NCBI GenBank assembly: GCA_040776945.1
Contig: JAXGZN010000001.1
Coordinates: forward strand, 160,001 to 224,000
Source: Methanomassiliicoccaceae archaeon
GTDB lineage: Archaea; Thermoplasmatota; Thermoplasmata; Methanomassiliicoccales; Methanomassiliicoccaceae
Length of the DNA stretch: 64,000 nt
Direction of reading: 5' to 3'
Shown here: in pieces, positions 11,544-64,000 of the stretch
How the letters are laid out: each line of letters opens with the position of its first letter
How positions within the stretch are numbered: position 1 is the stretch's first letter
Position numbers and translations under genes: made by a program
Notes under the pieces: generated by a model
Seen by the model: the letters and a program-made list of their open reading frames with translations, nothing else
What the model was told of the DNA's origin: nothing
Databases searched by the model: none

Positions 11544-13372
11544 TTGTCCTCGTCCTCGTCGTCCCCGGCAAGGCAGAGAAGCTGCAGCTCGGAGAGCTTG
11601 CCGTCCTCGACCTTGGCCGGAGCGCCGTCCATAAGGGACTGGAACTTCTTGTTCTTCGGGAAGGCTATCACCTCTCGGATGGTGTCGCAGCCCAGCAGTA
11701 TCGATACCAAACGGTCCACTCCCAGGGCTATGCCGCCGTGGGGAGGCGCCCCGTACCCCAGCGCTTCAAGGAAGAACCCGAAGTCCGAATCGATCTTCTC
11801 GTCCGACATCCCCAGTCGGCGGAACACCTGCCGCTGCACCTCGGGATCATGACATCGGATAGAGCCGGAGCCTATCTCTGAGCCGTCGAGAACAAGGTCG
11901 TAGCTCAGTCCGCCGATCGCGCCCAGGTCCCGGCAGCCCTCGACCTCACTGACCTCAGGGCAGACGAACGGATGATGGAACGCCTCCAGCTGGCCGGAGA
12001 TGCTATCTCTCTGGAAAAGAGGGCAGCCGACCAGCCATACGAACTGGTGGTCCTTTCCCTCGGTGAGACGGAGATCCTTGGCCAGCTTGCGGCGCAGTTC
12101 GCCACCAGCCTTGAGGGCGGCGATCTCGGAGCCGGCAAGGAACAGGAGAAGGTCTCCCTCTTGGGCACCCATCTCGTTCTCCAGCGATCTGGTGATCTCC
12201 TGGGGGAAGTACTTCACAATATTGCTCTGGAGGCCCTCAGAGGTCATGCGCATCCAGGTTAGGCCGCCCATGCCCTGTCCCTTGGCCCATTCGATGAGCC
12301 TGTCGACCTCGTTGCGTCCTACCGCGGCCTCATCGCCCGCCGTGGGCCTCATGAGATCGGCCGTGACGTTCATGCACACGACCCTCCCGCCCTTGGAGAG
12401 CACCTTTTTAAAGATCTCGTAGTTCGCGCCCTGAACGATGTCGGTCACATCGTGCAGCTTCAGATCGTATCGGATGTCCGGAGCGTCGGTGCCGTAACTA
12501 TGCATTGCTTCGTGGAAGGTTACGCGGGGGAACGGCGTCCTCAATTCCCGGCCGTAGATGGCCCGCCACATTGAGGACAGGACCTTCTCGACGAGCGCCT
12601 GGACGTCCCGGTCGTTCACGAAGGACATTTCGATGTCAAGTTGGGTGAACTCGGGCTGACGGTCAGACCTCGAGTCCTCGTCGCGGAAACAGCGGGCCAC
12701 CTGATAGTATTTGTCCATGCCGCCCACCATCAGCATCTGTTTGTACAGCTGGGGCGACTGAGGAAGGGCATAGAACGTCCCTGGCGAGATGCGAGAGGGA
12801 ACGATGAAGTCCCTGGCACCCTCCGGGGTCTGACGGCATAGCGTAGGGGTCTCCACCTCAACGAACCCCAGGTCGTCCAGAGCCCGCCTTGCGGCGGCGA
12901 TGGCTCGATGCCGAAACCTCAGGTTGTTCGCCATCTGGGTCCGCCTCAGGTCCAAGAAACGATACCTTAGCCGGAGGTCTTCCGAGGGAAGCAGCGATCC
13001 CTTCTGATCGGCGACCTCGAACGGCAGAGGTCTTGATGAGTTCAGCAGACAGGCCTCTTCGATCAGCACCTCGAGCTGGCCAGTGGGGTTGCGGGGGTCC
13101 TCTGTCCCGGGCACACGATTCCTGACCGTTCCGCCGACCGAGATTACAGACTCTCGGCCGAAGGACTTGAGCATCCTTTCCAGGCTCTCGCGGTCGCCCT
13201 CTCCTGACATGGCCTCCGGGTCGTACACCACCTGGGTGGTGCCGTATGCGTCCGCCAGGTCGAAGAAGAGGACCCCGCCATGGTCTCTAGAGAACCTAAT
13301 CCAGCCGGCCAGCTGTACATGCATGCCCAGATGATCGGCGCGCAGTTCTCCGCAGGTGTGTGTCCTCATCAT
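11540..13372 (-). CDS. aspS: Aspartyl-tRNA synthetase, bacterial type with GAD insert, probably non-discriminating
   Basis: 610 aa with RTHTCGEL, RDHGG, TPEGARDF, LPQSPQLYKQ, CFRDED, RQPEFTQLD, YGAPPHGGIALGVDR and IREVIAFPK. Confidence 0.93.
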   Translation of the reverse strand: MMRTHTCGELRADHLGMHVQLAGWIRFSRDHGGVLFFDLADAYGTTQVVYDPEAMSGEGDRESLERMLKSFGRESVISVGGTVRNRVPGTEDPRNPTGQLEVLIEEACLLNSSRPLPFEVADQKGSLLPSEDLRLRYRFLDLRRTQMANNLRFRHRAIAAARRALDDLGFVEVETPTLCRQTPEGARDFIVPSRISPGTFYALPQSPQLYKQMLMVGGMDKYYQVARCFRDEDSRSDRQPEFTQLDIEMSFVNDRDVQALVEKVLSSMWRAIYGRELRTPFPRVTFHEAMHSYGTDAPDIRYDLKLHDVTDIVQGANYEIFKKVLSKGGRVVCMNVTADLMRPTAGDEAAVGRNEVDRLIEWAKGQGMGGLTWMRMTSEGLQSNIVKYFPQEITRSLENEMGAQEGDLLLFLAGSEIAALKAGGELRRKLAKDLRLTEGKDHQFVWLVGCPLFQRDSISGQLEAFHHPFVCPEVSEVEGCRDLGAIGGLSYDLVLDGSEIGSGSIRCHDPEVQRQVFRRLGMSDEKIDSDFGFFLEALGYGAPPHGGIALGVDRLVSILLGCDTIREVIAFPKNKKFQSLMDGAPAKVEDGKLSELQLLCLAGDDEDEDN

Positions 13373-15366: not shown

Positions 15367-16707
15367 ATGTCCAGCGAGGAGCTCACGAAAGAGAGCATAA
15401 TAAGGACGGTTAAGGAGCAGAACGTTAAGTTCATCGAGATGCAGTTCTCGGACATCCTGGGCGCGGTCAAGTCCGTTGCCCTTCCCACTTCCAATATCGA
15501 GAAGGCGCTGGACGAGGGCATGTTCATCGACGGCTCATCCATCCTCGGCTATGCTACCATCGAGGAATCGGATATGCGGGCCCAGCCGATCCTCTCCTCA
15601 TTTCAGATCTATCCCTGGACATGCAACGGAGGGATAAGGACCGCACGGCTCTTGTGCCAGATATATGACCATTCTGGATATCGTTTCAAGGGTGACCCCC
15701 GATGGGTATTGGAAAAGATGGTGATCAAGGCCAAGGACAAAGGATATGACGTTAACCTAGGTCCGGAGTTCGAGTTCTTCCTCTTCAACCTGGACAGCAG
15801 GGGCAATCCGATCGCGGTGCCTGCCGATTCCGCCGGCTACTTCGACCTCATGGCCTTGGACAAGGGAGAGGAGGTCAGGAAGCATATCATGCTGAACCTC
15901 GACGTAATGGGCTTTGATTGCGAGGCTTCCCATCATGAGGTCGCGCCCGGGCAGCATGAGGTGGACATGCGGTACAATGATGCCCTAACTGTTGCCGATC
16001 GCTTAATGACCTTCAAGCTGGCGGTGAAGACGATAGCGCTCCAGCATGGACTATATGCGAGCTTCATGCCCAAGCCCATGTATAAGATGGCCGGCTCCGG
16101 CATGCATGTGCACCAGAGCCTCTCCGGCCCCCGGGGCAATGCGTTCGACGACCCTTCAGGCAAGTTCGGACTGAGCGACGTCGCCATGAAGTATCTGGGT
16201 GGTTTGCTGGCTCATTCCAAGGAAACCTGCGCGGTCATCAACTCGCATGTCAATTCGTTCAAGCGCCTGGTGCCTGGTTATGAGGCCCCGTGCTACATCT
16301 CGTGGGCTAACATGAACCGGTCGGCGCTCATCAGAGTGCCGGCAGGCCGAGGCAGCAAGGCCCGCGTCGAACTGCGGAACCCCGACCCTGCCGGGAACCC
16401 CTATCTGCAGTTCGCCATGATGATAGCCTCTGGTCTCAACGGCATAGAGAAGGGGACCTATCCGCCTGATCCGGTTGAGAAGGACATCTATCACATGAGC
16501 AAGGAGGAGAGGCGCCGCAACAAGATCGATTCTCTGCCGGAGAACCTCGGGCAAGCTCTGGAGATCATGTCCGGAAGCGACCTGGTCAGAAGGACACTGG
16601 GAGATCATATTTTCGAGCATTATCTTAAGATCAAAGGGGACGAGTGGGACGAGTACCGCACCTGCGTCACGGACTGGGAGGTCCAGAGGTACCTGAGCCA
16701 ACTTTGA
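15367..16707 (+). CDS. glnA: Glutamine synthetase type I (alpha-like)
   Basis: DGSSI, GPEFEFF, HHEVAPGQHE, FMPKP, GSGMHVHQS, RLVPGYEAP, NRSALIRVP and ELRNPD; 446 aa. Confidence 0.95.
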   Translation: MSSEELTKESIIRTVKEQNVKFIEMQFSDILGAVKSVALPTSNIEKALDEGMFIDGSSILGYATIEESDMRAQPILSSFQIYPWTCNGGIRTARLLCQIYDHSGYRFKGDPRWVLEKMVIKAKDKGYDVNLGPEFEFFLFNLDSRGNPIAVPADSAGYFDLMALDKGEEVRKHIMLNLDVMGFDCEASHHEVAPGQHEVDMRYNDALTVADRLMTFKLAVKTIALQHGLYASFMPKPMYKMAGSGMHVHQSLSGPRGNAFDDPSGKFGLSDVAMKYLGGLLAHSKETCAVINSHVNSFKRLVPGYEAPCYISWANMNRSALIRVPAGRGSKARVELRNPDPAGNPYLQFAMMIASGLNGIEKGTYPPDPVEKDIYHMSKEERRRNKIDSLPENLGQALEIMSGSDLVRRTLGDHIFEHYLKIKGDEWDEYRTCVTDWEVQRYLSQL

Positions 16708-17024
16708 GAGGTTGCCGCACTGTTGCTGGTCTAGCCTCCTGGCAGTTCTGCGATGCCCTTGTCCATTCCCTGAAGCGTAGGCTGGCCCGATCGATAGGTG
16801 GTACCGGACCTATCCACGCTGCGCTTCCCTCAGAAGGGCATCACCCCCTAGATCCCATGACCTATGTCATTATGCACATATAGCAGAACGAACCCTGTGT
16901 GTTCGTTGCCTTTAGCGGAAAAAGCATTGATCTCTTTCCTGCTTATCCGCCCTCAAGTCCACCATATGACTAATGAAAGACTTTATTATTCGAGCGAGAT
17001 ACCGGAAATCGCAAGTGAAATCTC

Positions 17025-18455
17025 ATGGACATGACCATAAGAGAAGCCAAGGAATTCTTTAGGGCCAACAACATCGAGATGGTCGACTTCAAGATGATCG
17101 ATCTAGACGGCAGATGGCGTCATCTGACGATACCTGCCGCCAACTTCACCGATTCGATACTTGAGCATGGCATCGGTTTCGATGGTTCAAACTATGGTTA
17201 TGCTCCGGTAGAGAGGAGCGACATGGTGTTCATACCGGACATAAGCACTATGATCGTCGATCCTTTCACCCTCGTGCCGACGGCCACCATGATAGGCGAC
17301 GTGATGTCCATAGGCAAGAAGAACGAGCCGTTCAACCAATATCCTCGCAACGTGGCCAAGCGGGCCGAGAGCTACTTGAGGGAGAGCGGGATAGCTGATG
17401 AGATGATAATCGGCCCGGAGTTCGAGTTCCATCTGTTCGATTCTGTTTCCTACGAGGTAGGCTCTAGGAGCATGCGATACAGCGTGGATACTCGAGAGGC
17501 GGAGTGGAACGCCGGTGCCAGCTCACCGGAGAATAAGGGCTATCAGATCGCTCAGAAAGGGGGCTACCATATTGACGTTCCCAAGGATGTTACTCATGAT
17601 CTCCGCAGCAGAATGTGCATATTGCTGAACAAGTGCGACGTCCCGGTAAAGTATCATCACCGCGAGGTAAGCGGCTCTGGCCAGGTCGAGATCGAGGTCG
17701 AGCTGGGCAAGATGAGCACGATGGCCGACCGGACCATGATGGTCAAGTATATCGTGAAGAACTGTGCCGCTGCCGAGGGAAAGACCGCGACCTTCATGCC
17801 CAAGCCCATCTACCTTGAGGCAGGGAACGGCATGCATGTTCACATGCTATTGATGAAAGACGGCCGACCCTTGTTCTATGACCCGGAAGGCTATTCGGGC
17901 CTAAGCAGGACAGCTCACTACTTCATCGGCGGCCTGTTAAAGCATATCGCATCCCTCTGTGCCTTGACCAACCCGTCCACCAACTCATACAAGAGGCTGA
18001 TACCAGGGTTCGAGGCGCCGGTCACCATCGGCTACGCTACGGCCAACCGCAGCGCGGTCATCCGCATCCCCGCCTATGCTCGGTCGCCTGAGGCTAAGCG
18101 CTTTGAGCTGAGGAACCCTGACGCGACATGCAATCCCTATTATGCCTATGCGGCCATCCTTATGGCGGGCATCGACGGCATAGAGAACAAGATCGATCCG
18201 TCCGATCATTATTGGGGGCCCTTCGACTTCAACCTCTACAATCTGAGCAAAGAGGAGCAGAAGAGGATCGAGTCGTTGCCAAGGACCCTCGTTGAGGCCC
18301 TGGACGCCCTCGAGACGGACCATGACTACTTGACCAAAGGCGGAGTGTTCCCGAAAGAGCTCTTGATGCACTGGATCGAGAAGAAGCGCAAAGAGGCGAA
18401 CATGATCGACCATATTCCCCATCCCGCCGAGTACAAGATGTACTACGATCTATGA
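17025..18455 (+). CDS. glnA: Glutamine synthetase type I (beta-like, second copy)
   Basis: GFDGS, GPEFEF, KGGY, TFMPKP, GNGMHVH, KRLIPGFEAP, NRSAVIRIP and NLYNL; 476 aa with a beta-type insertion. Confidence 0.93.
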   Translation: MDMTIREAKEFFRANNIEMVDFKMIDLDGRWRHLTIPAANFTDSILEHGIGFDGSNYGYAPVERSDMVFIPDISTMIVDPFTLVPTATMIGDVMSIGKKNEPFNQYPRNVAKRAESYLRESGIADEMIIGPEFEFHLFDSVSYEVGSRSMRYSVDTREAEWNAGASSPENKGYQIAQKGGYHIDVPKDVTHDLRSRMCILLNKCDVPVKYHHREVSGSGQVEIEVELGKMSTMADRTMMVKYIVKNCAAAEGKTATFMPKPIYLEAGNGMHVHMLLMKDGRPLFYDPEGYSGLSRTAHYFIGGLLKHIASLCALTNPSTNSYKRLIPGFEAPVTIGYATANRSAVIRIPAYARSPEAKRFELRNPDATCNPYYAYAAILMAGIDGIENKIDPSDHYWGPFDFNLYNLSKEEQKRIESLPRTLVEALDALETDHDYLTKGGVFPKELLMHWIEKKRKEANMIDHIPHPAEYKMYYDL

Positions 18456-39563: not shown

Positions 39564-40508
39564 TCACCGGTCGACGATTTGGGTTCCCGCCTTACTTGAC
39601 AATGCCGTATGTAAAAGTTCCGGTCTGGTGATGATGGCCTTGCGGCCCCCGGCACGAACAAAGGCTATGGCCGCCTCTACCTTAGGACCCATGGAGCCAG
39701 CATAGAAATGCCCCTCTCTTAGATAGCGCTCTGCCTCGTCAGCGGTGATCTCGCCCAGCAGCCTCTCCCTAGGAGAACCATGCTCCAGATATACGCCGTC
39801 CACATCCGTAAGCATGATCAGAAGGTCGACCTTCATGCCCTTGGCCAGACAGGCCGAGGCTAGGTCTTTGTCCACCACCGCCTCCACTCCCACGAGACGA
39901 CCATCCTGCCTCACCACCGGTATGCCTCCTCCGCCGGCGGCGATGACCAGGTCTCTGCCGCTGCATATGAGCCTGGAGATCGGCGCTGCCTCGACTATCT
40001 CCACTGGTCGGGGCGATGGCACGACGCGGCACCATCCGCCCCTGGCGCGGTCCTCCCTCATCACGCATCCGGTGGACAGCTCCATCTGCTCGGCCTCAGC
40101 GGCAGTATAGTAAGGCCCTATCGGCTTGGAGGGGCGGGAGAAGGCCTCATCGCCCGGATCTACGATCACGCGGGTCAACATGCATAGGACCGTCCGCTGG
40201 CAGCGGATCGTCTCTAGCTCTTCTGTGAGCGCTTGCTGGAACAGGTAGCCGATCATTCCCTGAGACTGGGCCACGCATACGTCCAATGGCATCGGTGGGA
40301 CCTCATACTTGGCCGCCTCGTTCTGAAGAAGGATGTCGCCCACCTGTGGACCGTTGCCATGGCTCAGGCTGATATTGTAACCGCCAGAGACCATGGCGGC
40401 TATGTGCTTGCTTATGCTCCTAAGGTTCTGCAACTGGTTATCCATCGTCGGCAGCTGCCCTCTTTTTAGGATGGCATTGCCGCCGACCGCCACGACCGCG
40501 GTCGTCAT
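39564..40508 (-). CDS. arcC: Carbamate kinase (copy 1)
   Basis: AVGGNAI, HGNGPQVG, PSKPIGP, RVVPSP, GGGGIPV, EAVVDKD and GSMGPK. Confidence 0.93.
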   Translation of the reverse strand: MTTAVVAVGGNAILKRGQLPTMDNQLQNLRSISKHIAAMVSGGYNISLSHGNGPQVGDILLQNEAAKYEVPPMPLDVCVAQSQGMIGYLFQQALTEELETIRCQRTVLCMLTRVIVDPGDEAFSRPSKPIGPYYTAAEAEQMELSTGCVMREDRARGGWCRVVPSPRPVEIVEAAPISRLICSGRDLVIAAGGGGIPVVRQDGRLVGVEAVVDKDLASACLAKGMKVDLLIMLTDVDGVYLEHGSPRERLLGEITADEAERYLREGHFYAGSMGPKVEAAIAFVRAGGRKAIITRPELLHTALSSKAGTQIVDR

Positions 40509-40598
40509 ATCCGTCCACGTTGCTACCTTCCCATCCATTGAAAAAGGTTGCCCAGTCCAAGCATAGATTTTAAACCCATATGGGCATGCCTTAGGCCG

Positions 40599-53757: not shown

Positions 53758-56301
53758 ATGAGCGAAGATGCGAAGGGTCCTGCAAACGGTAAAGAACAGG
53801 AATTGCAGGACTCGGCCCAGGTCCTTGAGACAAGGACCATGGATGAGGCGTTCGAGCGCCTCTCGAGCAGCGAGAGGGGCCTGAGCGATGAGGATGTTAA
53901 AGAACGGCGCGAAAAGTATGGGCCCAATGAGATAACGGAGAAAAGGGTCGGCCCGCTGCGCAAGTTCTTGGGATACTTCTGGGGCCCCATCCCGATCATG
54001 ATCATCGTGGCCGTCGTCCTCTCTGCGATCATCGGCCACTGGGACGATTTCTTCATCATCCTAGCACTTCTGTTCGTTAACGCCATAGTCGGATTCTATC
54101 AGGAGAACAAGGCGACCGACGCCATAGAGCTTCTGAAGGAACGTCTTGCACCGGAGGCCAGGGTCCTGCGGAATGGCGAGTGGAGCAATTTGCCGTCTCG
54201 GGAACTGGTCCCGGGGGACGTCGTCCGTGTGCGCCTGGGAGACATAGTTCCCGCCGACATCAAGCTCTTCCAGGGCGATTATCTGGAGGTCGACCAATCG
54301 GCACTGACCGGAGAGTCTCTGCCAGTGGACAAGAAGAACGGCAATGTGGCGTTCTCCGGCTCCATCATCCGCAAGGGAGAGATGAACGGCCTCGTGTTCG
54401 CCACCGGCCTTAACACCTTCTTCGGACGAACCGCCAAGCTGGTGGGAGAGGCCAAAACCATCAGCCATTTCCAGCGAAACGTGATGAAGATCGGGGACTA
54501 CCTCATCGTTCTTGACGTAATACTGGTCGCATTGGTCTTCATCATGGCCATCCTGCGCCACCAGAGCCTCTTGGAGACCTTGCAGTTCGCCCTGGTCCTG
54601 ACCATAGCCGCCATACCAGTGGCCCTGCCTGCGGTGCTCTCGGTGACCATGGCAGTAGGCGCCATCGCACTGGCGAAGAAGGAGGCGATTGTCAGCAGAC
54701 TGATCGCCATCGAGGAGATGGCGGGCATGGACATCCTATGCTCGGACAAGACCGGCACCATAACCCAGAACCTGCTGAGCGTGGCCAAGGTGATCACCTA
54801 TGGAGACACCTCCGAGGCCGAGGTCCTGACCGAGGCCGCACTTGCTTCCAGGACCGAGGACGAGGACCCCATAGACAACGCCATAATAAAGAGGGCGGAG
54901 GACACCCAAGGGGTCAAAGAAAGTATGGCGGAATACAGGGTAACGGGCTTCACCCCCTTCGATCCGGTAATTAAGCACACCGAGGCCGTTTTGGAAGGGA
55001 AGGGGGGAGAGATCAAGGTGGCCAAGGGAGCTCCCCAGGCCATCTTGGAGATGTCGGCCAACAAGGGCCCCATAGGCGATAAGGTAAATAAGGACGTCCA
55101 AGACCTGGCTTCCCTCGGATACCGTGCCCTTGGTGTCGCGAGGGCAACGGACGGAAGATGGCAGTTCACGGGGCTCATCGGGCTCCACGACCCTCCTCGC
55201 GAGGATTCAAAAAGGACGATAAGTGCGGCCGAAAGGATGGGACTGGACGTCAAGATGGTCACCGGGGACCATACGGATATTGCCAAGGAGATAGCCAAGG
55301 AGGTCGACATGGATCCGAACATCCTTCCCGCGAGCTCCTTCATCGATGCTCCGGACGACAAGGCCGGGGACATGGCGGAAAGGGCCGATGGGTTCGCCGA
55401 GGTGTTCCCTGAGCATAAGTTCCGCATAGTCAAGCTTCTCCAGGACAGAGGCCATATAGTAGGAATGACCGGAGATGGGGTCAATGATGCCCCGGCCCTT
55501 AAGAAGGCGGACGCGGGGATCGCAGTGGAGGGATCCACGGACGCTGCTAAATCAGCGGCGGACATCGTGCTCACGCGTCCCGGCCTGAGCGTGATAGTCG
55601 ATGCCATCATCGAGAGCAGGAAGATATTCCAGCGGATGATCAACTATTCCATCTACCGCATCTCGGAGACCTTCCGGGTATTGATATTCGTCACCATTTC
55701 CATATTAATATTCCAATTTTACCCGATAACCGCATTGATGATCGTTCTTCTGGCATTGTTGAACGATCTTCCTATCCTTACCATAGCCTTCGACAACGTG
55801 CGATTCTCGGCCAAGCCGGAAAAATGGGACATGCGGATCATCATCCTGGTGGGTTCGTATCTCGGAGCGATAGGGGTGGCCCAATCATTGGTCATCATGT
55901 ATATTGGCCTTGAGGTCTTTCATCTGAACCTATCGGTGCTCCAATCCTACATCTACCTGGTGCTTTCCGTTGGCGGGCACCTGGTCCTCCTGGCCGCCCG
56001 TACTAAAGGCCCGTTCTGGTCGGTGAGACCCGCGCCCAGGCTCCTGTGGGCCATCATACTGACCCAGTTGACAGCGACCATACTCGTGCTCTTCGGAATA
56101 TTATTGCCTCAACTGGACCCTATCTACGTCGCGTTCATATGGGGCCAAGGGCTTCTTACCTTCCTCATTGTGGACTCCACCAAGGTCATGCTGTACAAGT
56201 ATCTGATCAAGAAGGGACTTGTAGGAAAAGGCATCTCGGACCCTGAGAGCATCGGCAAGGAAGGAAAAAGACCGGTCGCTGCCGATGTGGCTGAGCGATA
56301 G
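53758..56301 (+). CDS. P3A-type plasma-membrane proton-efflux P-type ATPase
   Basis: FWGPIP, TGES, IPVALPAV, CSDKTGT, KGAP, TGD, GDGVNDAP and LLNDLP (proton-site Asp). Confidence 0.92.
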   Translation: MSEDAKGPANGKEQELQDSAQVLETRTMDEAFERLSSSERGLSDEDVKERREKYGPNEITEKRVGPLRKFLGYFWGPIPIMIIVAVVLSAIIGHWDDFFIILALLFVNAIVGFYQENKATDAIELLKERLAPEARVLRNGEWSNLPSRELVPGDVVRVRLGDIVPADIKLFQGDYLEVDQSALTGESLPVDKKNGNVAFSGSIIRKGEMNGLVFATGLNTFFGRTAKLVGEAKTISHFQRNVMKIGDYLIVLDVILVALVFIMAILRHQSLLETLQFALVLTIAAIPVALPAVLSVTMAVGAIALAKKEAIVSRLIAIEEMAGMDILCSDKTGTITQNLLSVAKVITYGDTSEAEVLTEAALASRTEDEDPIDNAIIKRAEDTQGVKESMAEYRVTGFTPFDPVIKHTEAVLEGKGGEIKVAKGAPQAILEMSANKGPIGDKVNKDVQDLASLGYRALGVARATDGRWQFTGLIGLHDPPREDSKRTISAAERMGLDVKMVTGDHTDIAKEIAKEVDMDPNILPASSFIDAPDDKAGDMAERADGFAEVFPEHKFRIVKLLQDRGHIVGMTGDGVNDAPALKKADAGIAVEGSTDAAKSAADIVLTRPGLSVIVDAIIESRKIFQRMINYSIYRISETFRVLIFVTISILIFQFYPITALMIVLLALLNDLPILTIAFDNVRFSAKPEKWDMRIIILVGSYLGAIGVAQSLVIMYIGLEVFHLNLSVLQSYIYLVLSVGGHLVLLAARTKGPFWSVRPAPRLLWAIILTQLTATILVLFGILLPQLDPIYVAFIWGQGLLTFLIVDSTKVMLYKYLIKKGLVGKGISDPESIGKEGKRPVAADVAER

Positions 56302-56761: not shown

Positions 56762-57565
56762 TCAACCGAACGGACCGCAATTGCTCCGCCAATTGCGAAA
56801 GATGTACCATATTCCAGAGATTATGTCGCTGCCGCTTGAATGGCCATACTTGGTGAGATCATAAGCGGCTTGACCGATCTTTCCGTTCCCCAACATCGCA
56901 TCCCCCAACCTCTTCACCGGAAGCGCGTACTGGCCGTCGAGGGCATCGAGCAGAATGGTCCGGGAAAGAGGATTTTCATAGGCCTCCACTATACCGCGGA
57001 CCTCCTGGACGCTTGACCCTACCAGTTCGTGGGCGAGGATGATGCCTAAGATGAAGTCGTCCCCCGAGGGCGTGAGCCCATAGCCCAGACCAAGCATCCT
57101 TCGGGCAAGCTCGATCGGCCCGGGGGACCCCTCGAGCAACGACGCTTGCTTCCTGGCCATCCACCCCTCCATCCCCTCCGGCGCTTCGGCCCGGCCAAGG
57201 TGCATGAGGAGCGGGGTCGTCATGCTCATCCTCTTCTTAACGATGAATGGGGTCAAGGAACGGAGGCATGGGACCATATCGAGCGGGCCGGACGGTTCCA
57301 GGGCCAGGTCCTTGGGCTCGCAGAGCTGCACGGAGTAGTTCCCCGCGTCAAGAACACCGTCGACCATGGCGGCGTGGTCCGAGCGCGGCATCTCCTCGAT
57401 CTCCACCACTATGCTCGAAGGGGCCGCGGTCCCCTCTTTATTGGTCAGGGTGACCGTTCTGTTGCCGAAGAGGAAGGCGCACGCTTTCTTAGAGCGGAGC
57501 AGCATCGTCCCCTTGCCCGATCTGGCGACCCGGTTGCCGCAGAACATCGAGCCGAGCGTCAACAT
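56762..57565 (-). CDS. DUF2877 protein (YahE/YlbF(AllH)-like)
   Basis: LGLGYGLTPSGDDFILG and GHSSGSD motifs. Confidence 0.85.
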   Translation of the reverse strand: MLTLGSMFCGNRVARSGKGTMLLRSKKACAFLFGNRTVTLTNKEGTAAPSSIVVEIEEMPRSDHAAMVDGVLDAGNYSVQLCEPKDLALEPSGPLDMVPCLRSLTPFIVKKRMSMTTPLLMHLGRAEAPEGMEGWMARKQASLLEGSPGPIELARRMLGLGYGLTPSGDDFILGIILAHELVGSSVQEVRGIVEAYENPLSRTILLDALDGQYALPVKRLGDAMLGNGKIGQAAYDLTKYGHSSGSDIISGIWYIFRNWRSNCGPFG

Positions 57566-57567
57566 AG

Positions 57568-58848
57568 CTACAGTCCGTATCGCGAAGCGTACCTCCTCAG
57601 GGCATCATTGAACGCTTCCATCGGCGCGTGCGATATGCCGCCCCCGATCTGTCCGACCCCCGGTTTCTTGGCAGCGATCCCGGTGTTCGACTTGGGCAGG
57701 AGGCCGGTGCGGTTCACCTTGATCATGTCTATGCCAAGGGGGCAGCCCTTGAAGTTCAGCGACGGGATCATGAAGTCCCTGTTAACCCCGTGACAGACCT
57801 TGTAACCGTCCATGGTCATCTGGACGGCATCCTGGACCGTGCCGCCAACGAACCTCGTCACGGCGGGCGACGCGGCCGACGCATATCCGCCCAGCCCCAT
57901 GACCTCCATGATCGCGCTGTCCCCGAAATCCCCTGCGGCGTCGGATTCGCTGAAACCTGGGAAGTACAGTCCTTTGGGGATCACCACGGGCCCCACGAAC
58001 CATTCTCCTTTCAGGCCGCTGATGCCGATGCCGTAACCGACGCCGTTCCTCGTCAACCTGGTGACTATGGTGCTGTTCTCGATCCCGTCAGCGGGATCTG
58101 CCAGTGCCTTCATGGCAGGCATGGCGAGGTTCAGGTAGTACTGCTCCCTGTCGCTGATGAACTTGATGACCTCCTTGCCTTCCGGCTGGTCCAGCAGGCC
58201 ATCTAGGACTGTCCTCAAGAACAACAGGCTCGAGGCATCATATCGCTCGTGGAGCTCATCACCCATCACCAGGCCCTTGGAGACGATGACCTTCAGATCG
58301 ATGGGGCTCTTCTTGACCACCTTCCTCAGCGCCGGGGCCAGCACGTCGTTCATCCATTGCAACCGCTTCAGCACCTCTTCGTCCCAGCCGCCGAAGCGAA
58401 GGATCTTGCCCCTTCCCTCGTGAAGGTTGCAGTAGGCTCGATTGCCAAAGGTCGGGTTCTCCACCACGCATACCATTTTCCCAGGCGTCACTATCCCGGC
58501 CATGGGCGCCACCGTGGAGTGCTCGTGACAAGGGGAGAACTCCAGCTCCCCGCTCCTGGCCAGCTCGTCCGCTTGCTTCAGGTCCTTGGCCTTGCCTTCG
58601 AACACCAGCGATCCCTGTACGGCAGCCTGCATGGGTGCGATCATCTTCTCATATTCAATGGGAGGGCCGGCGTGGAGGACAGTGTTGTCCTTCATTCCGG
58701 GGATCACGTTCTTGGCAAGGTCGAAATCGACCAGCATGGCGCGGCCCTTGTTCATCCTGTCCACTGCCTTGTCGTTCGCTTCGGCGATCCTGTCCATCAC
58801 CGCGGTAGAGGGCCGCTCCTTGTGGGCCGTTGTGGATGAGGGGGTCAT
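57568..58848 (-). CDS. DUF1116 protein (YahG/YlbE(AllG)-like)
   Basis: LHAGPPI, PCHE...PMAG, MGDELH, RNG, GDSAI and NTGIA...G.GQIGGG; start by ATGA coupling at 58848. Confidence 0.88.
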   Translation of the reverse strand: MTPSSTTAHKERPSTAVMDRIAEANDKAVDRMNKGRAMLVDFDLAKNVIPGMKDNTVLHAGPPIEYEKMIAPMQAAVQGSLVFEGKAKDLKQADELARSGELEFSPCHEHSTVAPMAGIVTPGKMVCVVENPTFGNRAYCNLHEGRGKILRFGGWDEEVLKRLQWMNDVLAPALRKVVKKSPIDLKVIVSKGLVMGDELHERYDASSLLFLRTVLDGLLDQPEGKEVIKFISDREQYYLNLAMPAMKALADPADGIENSTIVTRLTRNGVGYGIGISGLKGEWFVGPVVIPKGLYFPGFSESDAAGDFGDSAIMEVMGLGGYASAASPAVTRFVGGTVQDAVQMTMDGYKVCHGVNRDFMIPSLNFKGCPLGIDMIKVNRTGLLPKSNTGIAAKKPGVGQIGGGISHAPMEAFNDALRRYASRYGL

Positions 58849-59000
58849 CCTCCCACCGCCTGCAAAATGCGGGAGATGTCCTCCGGCACTTCGATCGGGG
58901 GCGTCCAGTCCACCTTCTCCACATCCATCTCCTGGCTGACCATCTCGCGGAGGAACCATTCCGAACCTACACAGAAGACCTTTAACTGACCTTTCATCAT
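58845..59000 (-). CDS. Stand-alone FdrA C-terminal module (51 aa)
   Basis: Missing from the ORF track: MMKGQLKVFCVGSEWFLREMVSQEMDVEKVDWTPPIEVPEDISRILQAVGG, with the V-D-W-x-P-P motif and ATGA overlaps at both ends. Confidence 0.8.
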   Translation of the reverse strand: MMKGQLKVFCVGSEWFLREMVSQEMDVEKVDWTPPIEVPEDISRILQAVGG

Positions 59001-60454
59001 CCAACATCACCCATGACCTTCGCGGCATACGCCGCAGCATTGCCAGATGATCCGAACACTACCACTCCGAGGTCCTTCAGCTCATCGGCTATCCTATCAT
59101 AGTCTTGCTTATCCGCCTTCGTTCCGCATATCGAGGCTATCGCCAGAGGGCCCCTCTGCAGACCGTCCAGCCCGGCCAACGGATCATCGGCGCTTCCCCA
59201 GCCGAGCATGATCTCGAACAGCAGCACCGCGACATCGTCCCTCCTGCTCTCCTTGACCAGCCACGAGTTCCTGGCCTGGGGATCGATCATCGGATGGGGC
59301 CTGCCTTTGACATACTCCTCGGCACCGGTATCGATGCACACGTTGAGGTTATCGTAATCATCCGGGAGGGACAGTTCCTTCTTTGTCGGGGCGTTCGAGT
59401 ATACCTTGATGCCCGCCTTCCCAATGATGGCCTGGGCCTGATAACATAGGCTGCCACCGACGAAGAGCCCTCGAAGATACTTACGGCCGTCCAGCTTGGC
59501 GCTCTCCTTGGGTGCCGCTTCCCGCAGCTCGGCCTTGCCCATCGCTTTCAGGATGTGGTCCACCCCTCGATCGATGGAGCCGGTCGAAAGGATATCGCCC
59601 TCTATGTGCTCCTCGCTCTCTCCCAGGGAGATGAACGCCGCCTTGCGTCCTTTGATCATGCTCAATATCTCATCTTTGACCCTCTTGTCCGGTTTCTTGC
59701 CTATTATGATGAGCCCATCGGAGACGCCAAGGCTTTCAATGGCCATCTTGGTCATCGTCCCGTCGATCTCCTCGGTCATGTCCTTGCTGCCCACCCCAAT
59801 GGCATATGAAGTCCCCAGGCCGCCCCTGTCCAGAAGGACCGTGGTCTCCTGCATTCCCGATCCCGAAGAGCCGATGACCGCGACATTTCCCGTCTTGACC
59901 GCATTGGCGAAGCCGAGGCCTTTGCCATCGATTATCACCGTGCCGGCGTCCGGGCCCATCACGAGAAGCCCTTTTTCCTTCCCTTTCCTCTTCAGGCTCA
60001 TCTCCACCTCGGTCGGCACGTTGCTGCTGAAGATGTGGAGATGGGCGCCCGCATCGAGACCGTCGTTCGCCAGCTTTTCGACGTACTGCCCCGGCGTGGA
60101 TATGAACAGGATCGGAAGGTCGCCCTTCCGTATCGTGTCCTTGAGCGTTCCCATGGTGGTGATCTCGACCTGGGGGCCTGACGTCTTCTCCCTGTCCATG
60201 AGGTCGATCGCGCTCTTGATGGCCGCCTCGGCGTGCTCATCATTGTCGGCCTCTATGGCGATCAATATGGATGAGGGCTTGACATTGGAAGGAGGGGAGA
60301 ACCCGGCGTTCCTCAGGAGGTCCAGGTTCTCCTTGGTCGCGGTGACCATGCCTGCCTTCTTCACTCCTATTTCCTTCTCCACGTCCCTGCTTACACCCAT
60401 GAGGAGGACCGAGTCCATGTATCGGTTCTCTATTTCGTGATAGCGTGTGCTCAT
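58997..60454 (-). CDS. fdrA: FdrA/YahF (AllF-like) protein, succinyl-CoA-synthetase-related fold
   Basis: YMDSVLLM, ISTPG.Y, LVMGPDAGT, GFAN, SGSGMQE, G.GSKD, RGLF.GG.LC and GRPHPMIDP. Confidence 0.88.
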   Translation of the reverse strand: MSTRYHEIENRYMDSVLLMGVSRDVEKEIGVKKAGMVTATKENLDLLRNAGFSPPSNVKPSSILIAIEADNDEHAEAAIKSAIDLMDREKTSGPQVEITTMGTLKDTIRKGDLPILFISTPGQYVEKLANDGLDAGAHLHIFSSNVPTEVEMSLKRKGKEKGLLVMGPDAGTVIIDGKGLGFANAVKTGNVAVIGSSGSGMQETTVLLDRGGLGTSYAIGVGSKDMTEEIDGTMTKMAIESLGVSDGLIIIGKKPDKRVKDEILSMIKGRKAAFISLGESEEHIEGDILSTGSIDRGVDHILKAMGKAELREAAPKESAKLDGRKYLRGLFVGGSLCYQAQAIIGKAGIKVYSNAPTKKELSLPDDYDNLNVCIDTGAEEYVKGRPHPMIDPQARNSWLVKESRRDDVAVLLFEIMLGWGSADDPLAGLDGLQRGPLAIASICGTKADKQDYDRIADELKDLGVVVFGSSGNAAAYAAKVMGDVG

Positions 60455-60463
60455 CCCATCACC

Positions 60464-61066
60464 TCAACCCGTCTTGGCCTTCGCCGGCTCACCGGGCACC
60501 TCGACCTCCTTGGGGAAGGAGAGGTATATCTGAAGATAGCCCCAGATCGGTCCGAGCAGGTTCATGAGCAGACCGCTGAACCAGGCCACGACGACCTCTG
60601 CACCTCCGAAGCCGGGCATCAGGCCGAACAGGCCGAAGTAGGTGGCAAAGAAGGTGGCGAAGCCATAGAAGTGGGCCGGCGTGTACGAAAGCGTCTTGAT
60701 GTACTTCGAACCCCAGAGGATCGGCTGGTTCACCAGGAAGATTACAAGGACATCAAAGGCCAGCATCCACACCAGATTATCTGCCAGCGGCGGGTTGCCG
60801 AAGGTCATCAATACGCCAGCGATAAAACCCCAGAACGACCCCCATATGATGCATGGATAGATCTTCTTATAGACCTCCTTGGTCTTGCCCGGTCCTCCTC
60901 CTCCCGCCGCGAAATATCCGGCCCAGGTTATGAAGACGCCCCATCCGCCGAAGTTGAGGGCGAATGGAGCGGCGAGCACCCCCGGGATCGACATGAAGAC
61001 CGTCAATGCTGCAAGGATCCCGCCGGTGAACGCCGTCGGGACCCTCTCCTTCGTCACTTTGGCCAT
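60464..61066 (-). CDS. DUF1097-like (YahC-like) membrane protein
   Basis: About six TMs with W..FI.WA.YFA.GG and P..F.GFA.FF patterns. Confidence 0.7.
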   Translation of the reverse strand: MAKVTKERVPTAFTGGILAALTVFMSIPGVLAAPFALNFGGWGVFITWAGYFAAGGGGPGKTKEVYKKIYPCIIWGSFWGFIAGVLMTFGNPPLADNLVWMLAFDVLVIFLVNQPILWGSKYIKTLSYTPAHFYGFATFFATYFGLFGLMPGFGGAEVVVAWFSGLLMNLLGPIWGYLQIYLSFPKEVEVPGEPAKAKTG

Positions 61067-61083
61067 AAGGCATCACACGCCCC

Positions 61084-62388
61084 TCAGGCTCGAAGCACCT
61101 CAGGCTGCCTGATCTCCATTGGCTCATTGGGATCGATGCGCCCCCCGCTCCATTTCATGACCTCGGGGTGCTCGCTGCGGTAGATCATCTTCCCTCTCTT
61201 GATGATGTAGCGGCGGATCGGGGGATCTATGAAGATGTCCCCCACGTGCTTGGAGCCGAGGACGACGAGGTCCGCGTTCTTGCCCTCCTCTAGCCCGTAG
61301 GTGTCCTCTATGTGCAACACCTTGGCCGGGTTCCTCGTGATCATGTCCAACAGCATCCTCTGATCGGCAGGGGTGCCGAGGTAGCAGGCGTGGGCATAAA
61401 GATTGCCGATCAGCAGCAGGTCCCCGTTCCCGAACGGCGTGAACCCGTTCTGGATGTTGTTGGTGGAGAAGCAATGGTTGACGCCCTTCTCTATGAACGG
61501 CTTTGGACTGAGGAGCCCTCTGCGCTTCGCCTTCTCATCGTTCCTTCCGCTCAGGAACATGTCCGTCGCTGCCAAGGTTATCAGGTTGATCTTGGCCTCC
61601 GCCATGCGCTTGGCGGTGTCGTCACGCACCTTCGGGTCCACGCTGGAGAGCGTGGTCATATGCCCGACCGAAACCCTTCCTTGGTACCCGTTCTCGATGG
61701 TCTGCTTGATTATGTAGTCGATGGAACGATAGCGCATGTCGTCGACATTATCCCCAAAGTCGGCATGGAACGAGCAATCCTTATCATACTTCTTCGCCAG
61801 TTCGAAGATCGCATCCACGTGTTGCTTTGTCCCTTCGAAATCATTCTCGTTGTAGGGGCATCCAGCCACCGAGTCCGCGCCCTTCTTCAAGGCCTGGTCC
61901 AGGAAATCATAGGCGGTTGGAGCCTTGACTATGCCTTCCTGAGCGAAGGCACAGACGTGCATGTCCACGTATTCCTTGTAGTCCTCCTTCAGCCTCATCA
62001 TCGCATCGAAGCCGACCAGCCTTGCGAGCGGGTCCGTATCGGGCTGCGCCTTGATGATGGTCGAGCCATGGCGAAGGCACATTTCCAGCACCTGCTTGGA
62101 ACGTTCATAGACCTCTTCGTCCTGGAAGGCCTTCTTCAGCTCCCCAGTGGTCTTGATCGCCCCCATGAGGGTGCCCTCCTTGTTCGGCCTGACCTTTTCC
62201 AGCAGAGCCTTGTCGATGTGTATGTGGCTCTCGATGAACGTTGGAACCACCACATCACCGGCGAGGTCGACCTCGATATCGCCTCTTAGACCGGTCCCTA
62301 TTTCCGATATCTTACCCTTGTCGATCGCAATGTCGGTCAAAGGCCTTTCATCATCGATCCTCGCGTTTTTCAATACCAGTTCAGGCAT
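61084..62388 (-). CDS. Cytosine-deaminase (CodA)-fold metallo-amidohydrolase, atypical active site
   Basis: ESHIHIDK, FAQEG, FHADF, VGHMT, STNNIQN..TPFG and G..ADLVV. Confidence 0.85.
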   Translation of the reverse strand: MPELVLKNARIDDERPLTDIAIDKGKISEIGTGLRGDIEVDLAGDVVVPTFIESHIHIDKALLEKVRPNKEGTLMGAIKTTGELKKAFQDEEVYERSKQVLEMCLRHGSTIIKAQPDTDPLARLVGFDAMMRLKEDYKEYVDMHVCAFAQEGIVKAPTAYDFLDQALKKGADSVAGCPYNENDFEGTKQHVDAIFELAKKYDKDCSFHADFGDNVDDMRYRSIDYIIKQTIENGYQGRVSVGHMTTLSSVDPKVRDDTAKRMAEAKINLITLAATDMFLSGRNDEKAKRRGLLSPKPFIEKGVNHCFSTNNIQNGFTPFGNGDLLLIGNLYAHACYLGTPADQRMLLDMITRNPAKVLHIEDTYGLEEGKNADLVVLGSKHVGDIFIDPPIRRYIIKRGKMIYRSEHPEVMKWSGGRIDPNEPMEIRQPEVLRA

Positions 62389-62538
62389 TCGTAACACCCT
62401 TGGTCTCAGGTGTCCAGGCACGATATTTAGCCTTTAACCGCAAAATGTGTGGCCTATCCCGACGAACCCATATTGCAAGGACGGTCCCAGAGCGGTCTCG
62501 CGCAGGATGAAATACGAGGAGGGTGCAAAGGGAGGGGC

Positions 62539-63492
62539 ATGGACGATGCGGAAAGGGGGAGCGTGCTCGTCGCTCTCGGCGGAAATGCGATCCTCAAGCA
62601 TACCGAGCAGGGCACGGCGGAGGAACAGAGACACAACATCGGCGTCACCGCAACATGGCTGGTCGAGATGATCAAGCACGGTTTCAGAATTGCCATCACT
62701 CACGGCAACGGTCCTCAGGTGGGAGATATCCTGCTCAAGAACGAGATCGCCAAGGGAACGTTGCCGCCAATGCCCATCGATGTCTGCGGAGCGGAGAGCC
62801 AGGGCCTTATCGGCTACTTCCTGCAGCAGACGATGCACAACGAGCTGGTCCGGCAAGGGTTGAACCTGCCATTGGCGACCGTCCTCAGCCAATGCATCGT
62901 CGGGGAGGACGATCCCGCGCTAAAGGACCCTTCCAAGCCTATCGGGCCGTTCTATACTGTAATGGAGGCATCGAAGCTTAGGGAGGAACGGGGGTGGACA
63001 ATGATAGATGACAGTGGAAGAGGTTGGCGTCGTGTGGTGCCCTCTCCCAAGCCCGTGTCCATCGTCGAGGGGCAGGTCATCAAGAGACTGTATGATGAAG
63101 GCTTCATCGTCATCGCCTGCGGCGGGGGCGGCGTGCCCGTGGTGCGGGAAGAGGGCGACCGCCTCAAGGGCATAGAGGCCGTTATCGATAAGGACCATAC
63201 CGCGTCGGCCCTCGCCAGGCTGATCGGGGCCGATACGCTGCTTATCCTGACGGACGTTGAGGGCGTCTACGCCCATTTCGGGAAGAAGGAGCAATCACTG
63301 ATCGGGGAGCTGACGGCGGATAAGGCCAGGGATATCATCGTCAATGGCAGCCTGCCCTCCGGGAGCATGAGGCCGAAGGTCGAGGCTGCCGTGCAGTTCG
63401 TGGAGGGAGGCGGGAAGAGGGCGATAATCACCTGCCTGGAATGTGCCCTTCTTGGACTGGAGGGCAAGAGGGGGACAACCATAATTAAGTGA
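62539..63492 (+). CDS. arcC: Carbamate kinase (copy 2, divergent from the fdrA operon)
   Basis: ALGGNAI, HGNGPQVG, PSKPIGP, WRRVVPSP, GGGGVPV, EAVIDKD and GSMRPK; GGAGG SD. Confidence 0.93.
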   Translation: MDDAERGSVLVALGGNAILKHTEQGTAEEQRHNIGVTATWLVEMIKHGFRIAITHGNGPQVGDILLKNEIAKGTLPPMPIDVCGAESQGLIGYFLQQTMHNELVRQGLNLPLATVLSQCIVGEDDPALKDPSKPIGPFYTVMEASKLREERGWTMIDDSGRGWRRVVPSPKPVSIVEGQVIKRLYDEGFIVIACGGGGVPVVREEGDRLKGIEAVIDKDHTASALARLIGADTLLILTDVEGVYAHFGKKEQSLIGELTADKARDIIVNGSLPSGSMRPKVEAAVQFVEGGGKRAIITCLECALLGLEGKRGTTIIK

Positions 63493-63609
63493 GCCTCAGG
63501 GCATGGACGTAGACGGTCGTTAGCTTCTGCCAGGCCCATGTTCTGGGGCCAAAGGCCGGCCGTTCGATGTGCCATTGCTCCTTGATCCCTCCGTCCGTAG
63601 CTCCTGCCC

Positions 63610-64000
63610 CTATTTTGAGCCCATTTCCGCCGCGACCTTTCCTTTGGGCCGCGGACGGTGATACTTCCTGAAGAAGAGCATCGTGAGCCCGGAAATTACC
63701 TGAAATGTACCGAGCATCACCAGTCCCAGAGAGTATGTTCCGGTCAAGGCCACGGCCAGGCCCACCAGGACCGTCCCGAACACGCCTGAGCCGTTCGAGA
63801 CGCCGTTGAGAAAACCTGTAGCGCCCCCGATCTGTTCTTCTGGAGCGATGTCCTGCAGCAGGGTGAACTGGTTCGGCTGAATGATGGAGATGAAGAAGAA
63901 CACCATGGTCATGAAAAATATGATCACGATGAAATCGGCGATGGGGATGACCAGAAAGATGAACGCTCCGGAAAGGATGCCGAATATCATGGCGATCTCC
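63610..64000 (-). CDS. MFS transporter, C-terminal part (5' end outside the window)
   Basis: TM segments with P.EQIG.ATG..N...N..G...G. Confidence 0.75.
   Translation of the reverse strand, partial: EIAMIFGILSGAFIFLVIPIADFIVIIFFMTMVFFFISIIQPNQFTLLQDIAPEEQIGGATGFLNGVSNGSGVFGTVLVGLAVALTGTYSLGLVMLGTFQVISGLTMLFFRKYHRPRPKGKVAAEMGSK

Follow-up and report, generated by a model that had tools for sequence, protein, structure and literature searches.

An AllFGH-type gene cluster with a free 51-residue junction protein and a second carbamate kinase in a methanogenic archaeon

Background

The oxamate transcarbamylase AllFGH of Escherichia coli combines an FdrA-type protein (AllF), a DUF1116 protein (AllG) and a DUF2877 protein (AllH), and was measured with carbamoyl phosphate and oxamate as substrates and assigned a role in breakdown (Kim and Kim 2024, PMC11326118). 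The transcarbamylase activity described in the available text of that report constitutes the only biochemical data for this trio of families. Here we analyze a stretch of 64,000 nucleotides from a Methanomassiliicoccaceae archaeon (assembly GCA_040776945.1, contig JAXGZN010000001.1, positions 160,001 to 224,000 of the forward strand; hereafter the window, whose own positions are used throughout), which holds a six-gene operon coding for homologues of these three proteins together with an amidohydrolase, a DUF1097 membrane protein and a 51-residue open reading frame (ORF), next to a carbamate kinase gene.

Several described systems resemble this locus. The E. coli yah cluster (yahC, yahD, yahE, yahF, yahG, yahI, yahJ) likewise includes members of the DUF1097, DUF2877, FdrA-like, DUF1116, carbamate-kinase-like and amidohydrolase families; a literature search on the yah gene names found nothing on yah function. 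AllFGH was established as an enzyme family in 2024, and its occurrence in archaeal metagenome-assembled genomes (MAGs) was recorded in 2025. One report (PMC12625717) describes allFGHK genes that adjoin biuH and bmpA-nupABC in MAGs of comammox bacteria and in ammonia-oxidising archaea. The titles of older work cited in PMC6022934 point to a pathway for oxalurate in Streptococcus faecalis that has a carbamate kinase of its own and, in a 1965 report, to an oxamate transcarbamylase of a Streptococcus that is induced by parabanic acid; at neutral pH, this acid is hydrolysed to oxaluric acid (PMC5703782). A more distant parallel is offered by the arginine and agmatine deiminase pathways, which also convert a ureido compound into carbamoyl phosphate and then into ATP via carbamate kinase, often with a dedicated transporter, but whose enzymes are unrelated except for the kinase and whose acceptor is an amine, while in the present locus it is probably an amide. 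Our literature searches found no description of the AllFGH lineage reported here, of its split subunit, of a fixed Asn-Asn amidohydrolase, or of such a system in methanogens; for the three protein families they returned the E. coli work and a study of floodplain nitrifier MAGs.

Results and discussion

Organization and family assignment of the operon

The source genome (G000; 2.17 Mb in 2 contigs, 99.84% complete) encodes McrA, and topoisomerase VI and class I LysRS are archaeal markers within the window itself. According to the ORF listing and family scans, the operon is composed of six tightly coupled minus-strand genes running from 62388 to 56762 in the order amidohydrolase, DUF1097, AllF, 51-residue ORF, AllG and AllH. 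A first-pass annotation of the window, made from the letters and their translations, had placed an operon of these families here and had recognized in it an archaeal set of AllFGH- or yah-type genes accompanied by a carbamate kinase. The Pfam and NCBIfam matches support the former far beyond chance, and the latter also holds, in a host that bears McrA.

The AllG-like DUF1116 subunit (57568..58848, minus strand) matches Pfam PF06545 at 6.5e-76 (255.1 bits, cut-off 27), is 44% identical to YahG and 43% to YlbE/AllG, and finds PDB entry 3clq at 7.1e-112; its most likely start is ATG 58848, giving 426 aa, rather than position 59040 as initially proposed. The AllH-like DUF2877 subunit (56762..57565, minus strand, 267 aa) matches PF11392 at 3.1e-17 (63.6 bits, cut-off 25) and is 31% identical to YlbF and YahE over ~100 aa. 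The AllF/FdrA-like subunit, which lacks the tail of FdrA (58997..60454, minus strand, 485 aa), matches the FdrA subfamily NF004760 at 6.8e-82 and the Pfam domains Ligase_CoA and CoA_binding, shares 31-32% identity with YahF and FdrA, and finds the FdrA structure 3dmy at 6.1e-50. The two upstream genes code for a DUF1097 membrane protein (60464..61066, minus strand, 200 aa; PF06496 at 2.4e-12, hydrophobic segments) and for an amidohydrolase of the CodA/AtzC fold (61084..62388, minus strand; Amidohydro_3 at 2.2e-25, Amidohydro_1). The amidohydrolase frame is also open from GTG 62421, the start adopted in the first-pass annotation, but ATG 62388 (434 aa) is most likely. Gaps of 17 nt separate amidohydrolase from DUF1097, 9 nt DUF1097 from AllF and 2 nt AllG from AllH, and the 51-residue ORF joins AllF on one side and AllG on the other through ATGA start/stop overlaps.

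A movable module at the AllF-AllG junction

The microprotein gene between AllF and AllG (58845..59000, minus strand) gave a BLASTP match to residues 10-39 of E. coli YahG, and it aligns with the C-terminal tail of FdrA from the same species as well as with the YahG N-terminus. By alignment, the 51-aa ORF is the free form of a module of ~45 aa that elsewhere forms the FdrA C-tail or the YahG N-terminus, in agreement with its initial recognition as an FdrA-tail homologue. A module profile built from six copies was used to search all loci collected and found the module only at AllF and AllG genes, in four states. It is a free small ORF in the window, L005, L006, L007, L051 and L008, and lies at the C-terminal end of AllF in E. 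coli FdrA, L029, L046, L023 and L095; at the N-terminal end of AllG it occurs in YahG, L040, L076, L044 and L094, and it is found mid-protein in a 1003-aa AllF-AllG fusion of Enterococcus faecalis. The free ORF was present in 4/4 archaeal loci (window, L005, L006, L007), with 53-59% identity and 22 invariant columns; in L006 the 3' end of AllF (~4575-4680) consists of N. Among the archaeal relatives of AllF, which form 53 database clusters with at least 47% identity, 51 are 467-492 aa long and thus tail-less; the remaining two (403 and 268 aa) align over part of the query only. A protein search for free homologues of the 51-aa ORF returned 2 clusters, a count that is no measure of rarity because the search relies on shared words and overlapping small ORFs are often missed by gene callers.

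The arrangement of the three proteins was modeled as a complex of three chains (AllF, AllG and the tail as partner) in three runs, with control swaps. The complex scored 0.88, compared to 0.63 for the best control; in the benchmark, the mark applied is reached by 116 of 157 complexes of solved structure, but by 2 of 215 mismatched pairs. Contact agreement between runs was at least 94% and the pLDDT (predicted local distance difference test) of the partner was at least 82. Tail residues 6-12 pair in the model with AllF residues 113-120, and other tail residues meet AllG in both of its terminal parts. When AllF was replaced but the tail and AllG were kept, the control still scored 0.63, which fits a bridge between AllF and AllG. 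The model thus suggests that the 51-aa protein is probably a bridging piece between these two subunits that is fused to one or the other of them elsewhere.

Phylogeny and distribution of the cluster

In the AllG tree (18 rows), the protein of the window groups with those of L007, L006 and L005 at 100/100 support, on a stem of 0.98, and this clade lies outside another clade of 100/100 support that comprises AllG of E. coli and E. faecalis together with L023, L027 and L029. YahG joins neither clade, and the backbone is a polytomy. A tree of AllF, built from 14 rows by a quick method, agrees with this, the clade of the window having a stem of 1.92. As judged from both trees, the window system is a third lineage that belongs neither to the tested oxamate transcarbamylase clade nor demonstrably to Yah, whose position relative to it is left open by the polytomy.

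Comparison with the described systems gives a similar picture of common parts in differing assemblies. The window shares with E. coli AllFGH/AllK the three families encoded together, the adjacent carbamate kinase, the ~45-aa module at the AllF-AllG junction, and an anaerobic host without urease. It differs from that system by its separate AllG/AllF clade (31-43% identity), by the module being a free 51-aa gene rather than an AllF C-tail, by the lack of detected allB, allC, allD and allE genes in its genome, and by the Asn-Asn amidohydrolase and DUF1097 as fixed operon members. With the yah cluster it has in common, apart from the families listed above, a short AllF like YahF; in contrast, the module is fused to the N-terminus of YahG, the gene order is different, the clades are not joined in the tree, and no YahD (ankyrin) homologue was found in the window's genome by tblastn at E 1e-5 or better. 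The loci of PMC12625717, within the text available, are similar in combining archaeal AllFGH with carbamate kinase in the absence of an upstream purine pathway, but they show neither a CodA-like amidohydrolase nor DUF1097, and the clade of the window is distinct from them.

The distribution of the cluster was assessed in 60 relatives of the host, including 10 congeners, and in a phylum sample of 400 other genomes. AllG (PF06545) was found in 2 of the 60 relatives and in 0 of the 10 congeners, and the AllG protein query identified 2 of the 400 phylum-sample genomes, at 45-47% identity; the cluster is rare near the host and patchy. One of the two relatives, G057, which belongs to another family of the same order and bears McrA, has the identical six-gene order (L007), with AllG and the amidohydrolase both 76% identical to those of the window. 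All six genes also occur in the window order in an uncultured archaeon (L006), and the last four in a Thorarchaeota MAG (L005) whose contig is broken within AllF; AllG of these two loci is 67-68% identical to that of the window, and AllH follows AllG in L005, L006 and L007 alike. The other AllG-bearing relative, G051, also bears McrA and carries a different AllFGH type with a BmpA-type ABC transporter, in which AllG is 38% identical to the window protein. This locus (L008, G051:C26, 2117-10680) codes for AllG, the four-gene transporter, AllH, AllF and a free tail ORF, in a genome of the same archaeal order as the host, and it is the one that the loci of PMC12625717, so far as their description is accessible, resemble in transporter type.

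Of 1.84 billion representative proteins in the databases, 446 match AllG with an E value of 1e-30 or lower, the nearest at 58% identity and the next at 48% or less. The source names of close protein matches include MAGs of Thermoplasmata, Thermoplasmatales, Methanomassiliicoccales, Micrarchaeia, Parvarchaeota and Thaumarchaeota. Since 18 longest-contig sizes recur in both the archaeal amidohydrolase and the AllF match lists, the two genes may lie on common contigs in many more MAGs, although this indication is indirect.

The patchy distribution (2/60, 0/10 and 2/400 genomes) would also be expected of a passenger cluster that the host acquired recently and carries without using it. However, all six operon genes have intact and coupled frames, their G+C content (0.57-0.63) is similar to that of the flanks, and contigs from RNA libraries cover the region. 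Furthermore, four archaeal loci have preserved the cluster with identities of 53-76%, so that its proteins must be under selection, and we consider an idle passenger highly improbable.

An Asn-Asn amidohydrolase coupled to a membrane protein

The best NCBIfam match of the amidohydrolase is PRK07572 'cytosine deaminase' (246.7 bits, under the 438-bit cut-off), and among proteins of known structure it is closest in sequence to CodA (5.4e-48) and AtzC, with which it aligns from end to end. A structure model (pLDDT 88.8) gave Foldseek TM-scores (template modeling scores) of 0.82-0.92 to CodA/AtzC. As in these subtype III amidohydrolases, the HxH motif (H55, H57), the beta-5 His (H208) and the beta-6 His (H243) are present, being invariant in the subfamily, as is the active-site Gln. 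The residues that align with CodA Asp313 and Asp314 (literature CodA numbering being the translation numbering minus one) are Asn310 and Asn311, and both Asn are invariant in 21/21 subfamily rows, hence the name Asn-Asn used here. The protein also keeps Gln150, Lys60 and Asn311, of which Lys60 and Asn311 correspond to AtzC Lys65 and Asn304. In AtzC, Lys65, Asn304 and a conserved Gln hold the ring carbonyls of ammelide, as described in the accessible part of PMC4577212. The conservation of these carbonyl-binding residues suggests that the substrate presents an imide or ureide face. The protein is no equivalent of YahJ, the yah-cluster deaminase named for comparison in the first-pass annotation, to which it is only 21% identical over 299 aa; YahJ keeps Asp at the position of the window's Asn, so that the active-site make-up differs.

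The genomic context of this subfamily was inspected in metagenomes, where 565 stretches passed a tblastn check with the amidohydrolase query and the best 80 were kept. The motif pattern matched 66 of these 80 homologues, with Asn-Asn in 66/66. Neighbors were counted at tblastn E 1e-8 or better with at least half of the query covered, and the counts are lower bounds given the many short contigs. AllF and/or AllG lies beside the amidohydrolase homologue in 10/80 loci (four of these belonging to the tested transcarbamylase clade), carbamate kinase in 5/80, a GGT-like gene in 5/80 and an unrelated multi-pass membrane protein directly upstream in 7/80. Downstream sequence of 600 nt or more was available for 66 loci, and in 14 of these DUF1097 follows directly, 15-166 nt past the end of the alignment; among the 23 loci of this subset with at least 40% identity it does so in 11. 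DUF1097 occupies the same operon position in L006 and L007. Going by these counts, DUF1097 is a steady partner of the amidohydrolase rather than of the transferase, and the usual pairing of the amidohydrolase with a membrane protein can be read as a first step after uptake. Single loci add further neighbors: L029, of the tested clade, has the order membrane protein, amidohydrolase, AllF, AllG, MFS (major facilitator superfamily) transporter, with no allD match in its 21 kb, and L016 has an NCS1 permease and an amidase. The Asn-Asn family is large, and we have encountered no characterized member.

Several side observations concern the same family. Homologues with ~40% identity are found in cyn-like operons with LysR and cyanase or carbonic anhydrase (L036:8778-11224, L038:8422-11194). 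A trio of GGT-like gene, Asn-Asn amidohydrolase and DUF1097 recurs in L015, L018 and L020, with no AllF/AllG in the flanks examined; it is preceded by a PAS histidine kinase gene in L015 and L020, and L020 also has a LuxR-type regulator gene. An apparent amidohydrolase-DUF1097 fusion in L025 proved to be an adjacency, as the long ORF is in another frame than the amidohydrolase match. For DUF1097 itself, the structure model from a 4-row alignment (pLDDT 45.9) was too poor for a structure search, and an ESM Atlas search returned DUF1097 clusters only.

Carbamate kinases and the MFS transporter

Divergently from the operon, and separated from it by an intergenic region of 150 bp (62389..62538) with an A+T-rich TATA-like stretch at 62422-62429, lies the gene of a carbamate kinase, CK2 (62539..63492, plus strand, 317 aa from ATG 62539; AA_kinase at 3.4e-29). 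The initial description of CK2 as a second carbamate kinase is correct, since a first one, CK1, is encoded at 39564-40538 on the minus strand. Both exceed the 358.25-bit equivalog cut-off of TIGR00746 arcC (CK2 386 bits, E 1e-115; CK1 380.9 bits). CK2 is 48% identical to CK1 and 58% to the only kinase of G057. CK1 is 67-75% identical to the single kinase of the congeners G009 and G001 and keeps the same neighbors as these (a GTPase, a Zn-ribbon protein and TopoVI-B), which suggests that CK1 is the inherited copy and CK2 the extra one. Most of the 60 relatives with an above-cut-off carbamate kinase show one match, and G017 and G043 show two, like G000. Genuine carbamate kinases are widespread in the archaeal order of the host, with 35 of 61 genomes above the arcC cut-off.

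Convergent with CK2 is an MFS transporter gene, the 3' part of which lies in the window (63610..64000, minus strand; the full protein of 426 aa extends to ~64890 outside it); the frame end at 63485 given in the first-pass annotation is to be corrected to 63610. The protein matches MFS_1 at 3.8e-43, and its best NCBIfam model is TIGR00893, of the D-galactonate/anion:cation symporter group (160 bits, under the cut-off). The congener G002 has a CK2-like kinase (78.5% identity), its only one above the cut-off, convergent with an MFS gene (75.5% identity; L102 = G002:C43, 2575-4938). Since the G002 pair stands without the operon, CK2 and MFS may be regarded as a pair of their own to which the operon was joined in G000. 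The operon of G057 instead adjoins an MFS gene 58% identical to that of the window and an H+ P-type ATPase gene. The first-pass picture of the locus needs changing in two respects: DUF1097 travels with the amidohydrolase, and the kinase-MFS pair has an existence of its own.

This loose attachment of the kinase (the G002 pair without the operon, the G057 operon without an adjacent kinase) agrees with a reading that involves no carbamoyl transfer, in which the FdrA-like protein would be an acyl-CoA-synthetase- or succinyl-CoA-synthetase-alpha-type enzyme acting on the amidohydrolase product and the presence of the kinase would be coincidental. The CoA_binding and Ligase_CoA domains and the NCBI family name 'acyl-CoA synthetase FdrA' are in line with it as well. 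We give this reading very little credence: the sole biochemical data on the trio, in the text available of PMC11326118, show transcarbamylase activity, and carbamate kinase genes occur near AllF/AllG in four metagenome loci (L021, L023, L029, L051), in E. coli and in E. faecalis.

Another reading reverses the direction of the pathway, so that CK2 would make carbamoyl phosphate, the complex would carbamoylate an amide, the amidohydrolase would close the ring and the heterocycle would be exported, in analogy to the succession of aspartate transcarbamylase and dihydroorotase. Members of the amidohydrolase superfamily catalyze ring closure in pyrimidine synthesis, and the altered active site of the window protein could favor cyclization. 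The E. coli enzyme was assayed with carbamoyl phosphate and oxamate as substrates, although the characterized role of the family, in the same partially available report, is breakdown (PMC11326118). Homologous clusters come with uptake-type permeases (NCS1, BmpA-ABC) and catabolic regulators (PucR), no candidate product is known, and CarB already supplies carbamoyl phosphate. With CarB present, the kinases are not needed for making carbamoyl phosphate; an anabolic CK2 is accordingly unlikely, and we find a biosynthetic cluster as a whole scarcely credible.

Genome context and expression

The absence of allB, allC and allD, proposed for the window, extends to the whole genome, where E. coli AllA, AllC, AllD and AllE gave no tblastn match at E 1e-3 or better, and an AllB-like ORF passes the dihydroorotase model and not the allantoinase model. 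The urease alpha subunit, arginine deiminase and a GGT homologue were not found in the genome. It holds an agmatine-deiminase-like gene (G000:C1:490939-491949), two OTC/ATC-family genes and CarB; hydantoinase genes, which the first-pass annotation had thought worth looking for, are represented by four Hydantoinase_A-family ORFs.

DNA near-identical to the window was found in metagenome runs whose labels are anaerobic digester, bioreactor sludge and activated sludge, and the genome itself may have come from many of these runs. Four RNA libraries contain 23-57% of the sampled words, and their contigs are at least 99% identical over the operon, covering 29, 21, 17 and 13 of 30 bins; contig depth cannot rank the genes, and the uncovered parts in runs X16 to X18 are uninformative. 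In three runs the contigs end at 62389 or 62390, 1-2 nt before ATG 62388, which hints weakly at leaderless initiation and at this ATG as the start codon.

Among other genes of the window, a plasma-membrane-type H+ P-type ATPase gene (TIGR01647, 1020 bits; 53758-56301, plus strand) adjoins the operon, and the same ATPase adjoins it in G057 in a different orientation (L007:14219-16735). As homologues are present in 14 of the 60 relatives, the ATPase is not operon-specific and was rejected as a member of the operon island. Farther away, at 11540-13372 (minus strand), 8851-11543 (plus strand) and 15367-18455 (plus strand), the window holds a gene for an AspRS of 610 aa that includes a GAD domain, adjoined by genes similar to GatA and GatB, and two glutamine synthetase genes in tandem.

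Proposed pathway and candidate substrates

On balance we lean towards the cluster being a breakdown module for a carbamoylated, nitrogen-rich compound, by which a ureide would yield carbamoyl phosphate and from it ATP and ammonia. Such a module would be made up of two sub-modules, amidohydrolase with DUF1097 and AllF/51-aa protein/AllG/AllH, joined to the second kinase and an anion transporter. DUF1097 and/or the MFS protein would import an anionic cyclic ureide or acyl-urea, which the Asn-Asn amidohydrolase would open or trim to an N-acyl-urea of the oxalurate type. The predicted four-polypeptide complex would move the carbamoyl group to phosphate, giving carbamoyl phosphate and an amide, and CK2 would convert carbamoyl phosphate and ADP into ATP, ammonia and CO2. 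Gene content is the observed basis of these four steps; the sequence of import, hydrolysis, phosphorolysis and ATP formation put forward in the first-pass annotation is consistent with it.

As to the substrate, the first-pass annotation had doubted oxalurate, which stays in play because of a 44%-identical amidohydrolase in E. faecalis. This record (L012), the best plasmid-collection match to the amidohydrolase, shows a run of genes for PucR, the 1003-aa FdrA (AllF-AllG fusion), DUF2877, MFS, arcC, a dicarboxylate symporter, allD, a membrane protein and the amidohydrolase. In both the E. faecalis and the window cluster, an Asn-Asn amidohydrolase gene adjoins that of a membrane protein, and MFS and carbamate kinase genes are present; the two clusters differ in the AllF-AllG fusion with its internal module, and in allD, a YahJ-like second amidohydrolase and an ankyrin gene, all of which belong to the E. 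faecalis cluster. The latter two lie in its upstream part (L012:1-1458), where the amidohydrolase is 36% identical to YahJ, so that the cluster mixes yah-like and all-like parts. Based on the amidohydrolase in this allD cluster, the parabanate reports and the gene order of L029, the best lead is oxalurate derived from parabanate or a similar trioxo-heterocycle. We regard this lead as tentative and would not count it as probable; the clade of the window may use another compound.

The same homologue in an oxalurate cluster where allD already makes oxalurate could also speak for plain oxalurate scavenging from neighboring purine degraders. The complex would then yield carbamoyl phosphate and oxamate, and the amidohydrolase would subsequently convert oxamate to oxalate, releasing a third ammonia. 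AtzC binds the small dicarboxylate malonate via residues conserved in the window protein (PMC4577212, in the part accessible), the MFS transporter is of the organic-anion type, and with no urease found in the genome each amide nitrogen counts. On the other hand, a GGT-like gene follows the operon in L005, L006 and L051, and HpxW, a known oxamate amidohydrolase (PDB 5HFT), belongs to the GGT family according to the available text of PMC12360370; if the oxamate step is done there, a second oxamate amidase would be redundant. An assignment of these neighbors as HpxW-type was not upheld, as the L006 protein scores 391 bits to 2nlz, 232 to E. coli GGT and only 123 to 5hft_A (HpxW), and the comparison is an analogy only. 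The steady pairing of the amidohydrolase with a membrane protein better fits a first step after uptake, and the AllG clade lies outside the tested oxalurate clade. Scavenging of ready-made oxalurate therefore appears improbable to us.

A number of observations weigh against the proposed breakdown of an imported ureide. The beta-8 Asp, whose roles as metal ligand and proton shuttle are treated in the accessible part of PMC4577212 (CodA Asp313, AtzC Asp303), is replaced by Asn310, and CodA Glu217, the Glu of HxxE, is not conserved but aligns with Asn214 after a 3-residue insert behind the beta-5 His; from this alignment, the amidohydrolase may be inactive or non-hydrolytic. In 70 of the 80 metagenome loci, many of them on short contigs, the amidohydrolase has no AllF/AllG nearby, and some homologues stand beside GGT-like genes or cyanase. 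The association with the kinase is likewise inconstant, as AllG was not found anywhere in G002, the congener with the kinase-MFS pair, and no kinase adjoins the G057 operon; moreover, the MFS protein is only 21% identical to that of the E. faecalis cluster. With respect to the transferase, the FdrA match (275.7 bits) is under the 433-bit cut-off of NF004760, and the long stems from the tested enzyme (0.98 and 1.92 changes per column) imply that the acceptor, and even the chemistry, may differ. The pass of the complex model may partly reflect the solved E. coli FdrA chain 3dmy, possibly with the tail in cis. Finally, the RNA libraries may contain DNA, and the evidence of expression is weak.

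Conclusions

By comparative analysis of an archaeal operon, we tentatively defined a third AllFGH lineage in which the junction module of AllF and AllG is a predicted free subunit and an Asn-Asn amidohydrolase with its DUF1097 partner is a fixed companion. To our knowledge, methanogens are held to conserve energy only via methanogenesis. The boldest form of the proposed pathway, which we think rather unlikely, is that this methanogen imports and ferments a cyclic ureide, of the parabanate/oxalurate type or an unnamed heterocycle, and so obtains ATP apart from methanogenesis. It would do this through a four-polypeptide AllFGH lineage stapled by the 51-aa subunit and with a membrane-coupled amidohydrolase that, lacking the beta-8 Asp, would be a new catalytic type. 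If the route from ureide via carbamoyl phosphate to ATP is real, it would provide a digester methanogen with a side income of ATP and ammonia, and it would link digester methanogens to purine-waste cross-feeding in sludge. The two fixed pairings, of amidohydrolase with DUF1097 and of AllF with AllG via the movable 45-aa module, also offer a handle on the question of the yah genes, for which the four-gene archaeal version is suited to expression and assay.

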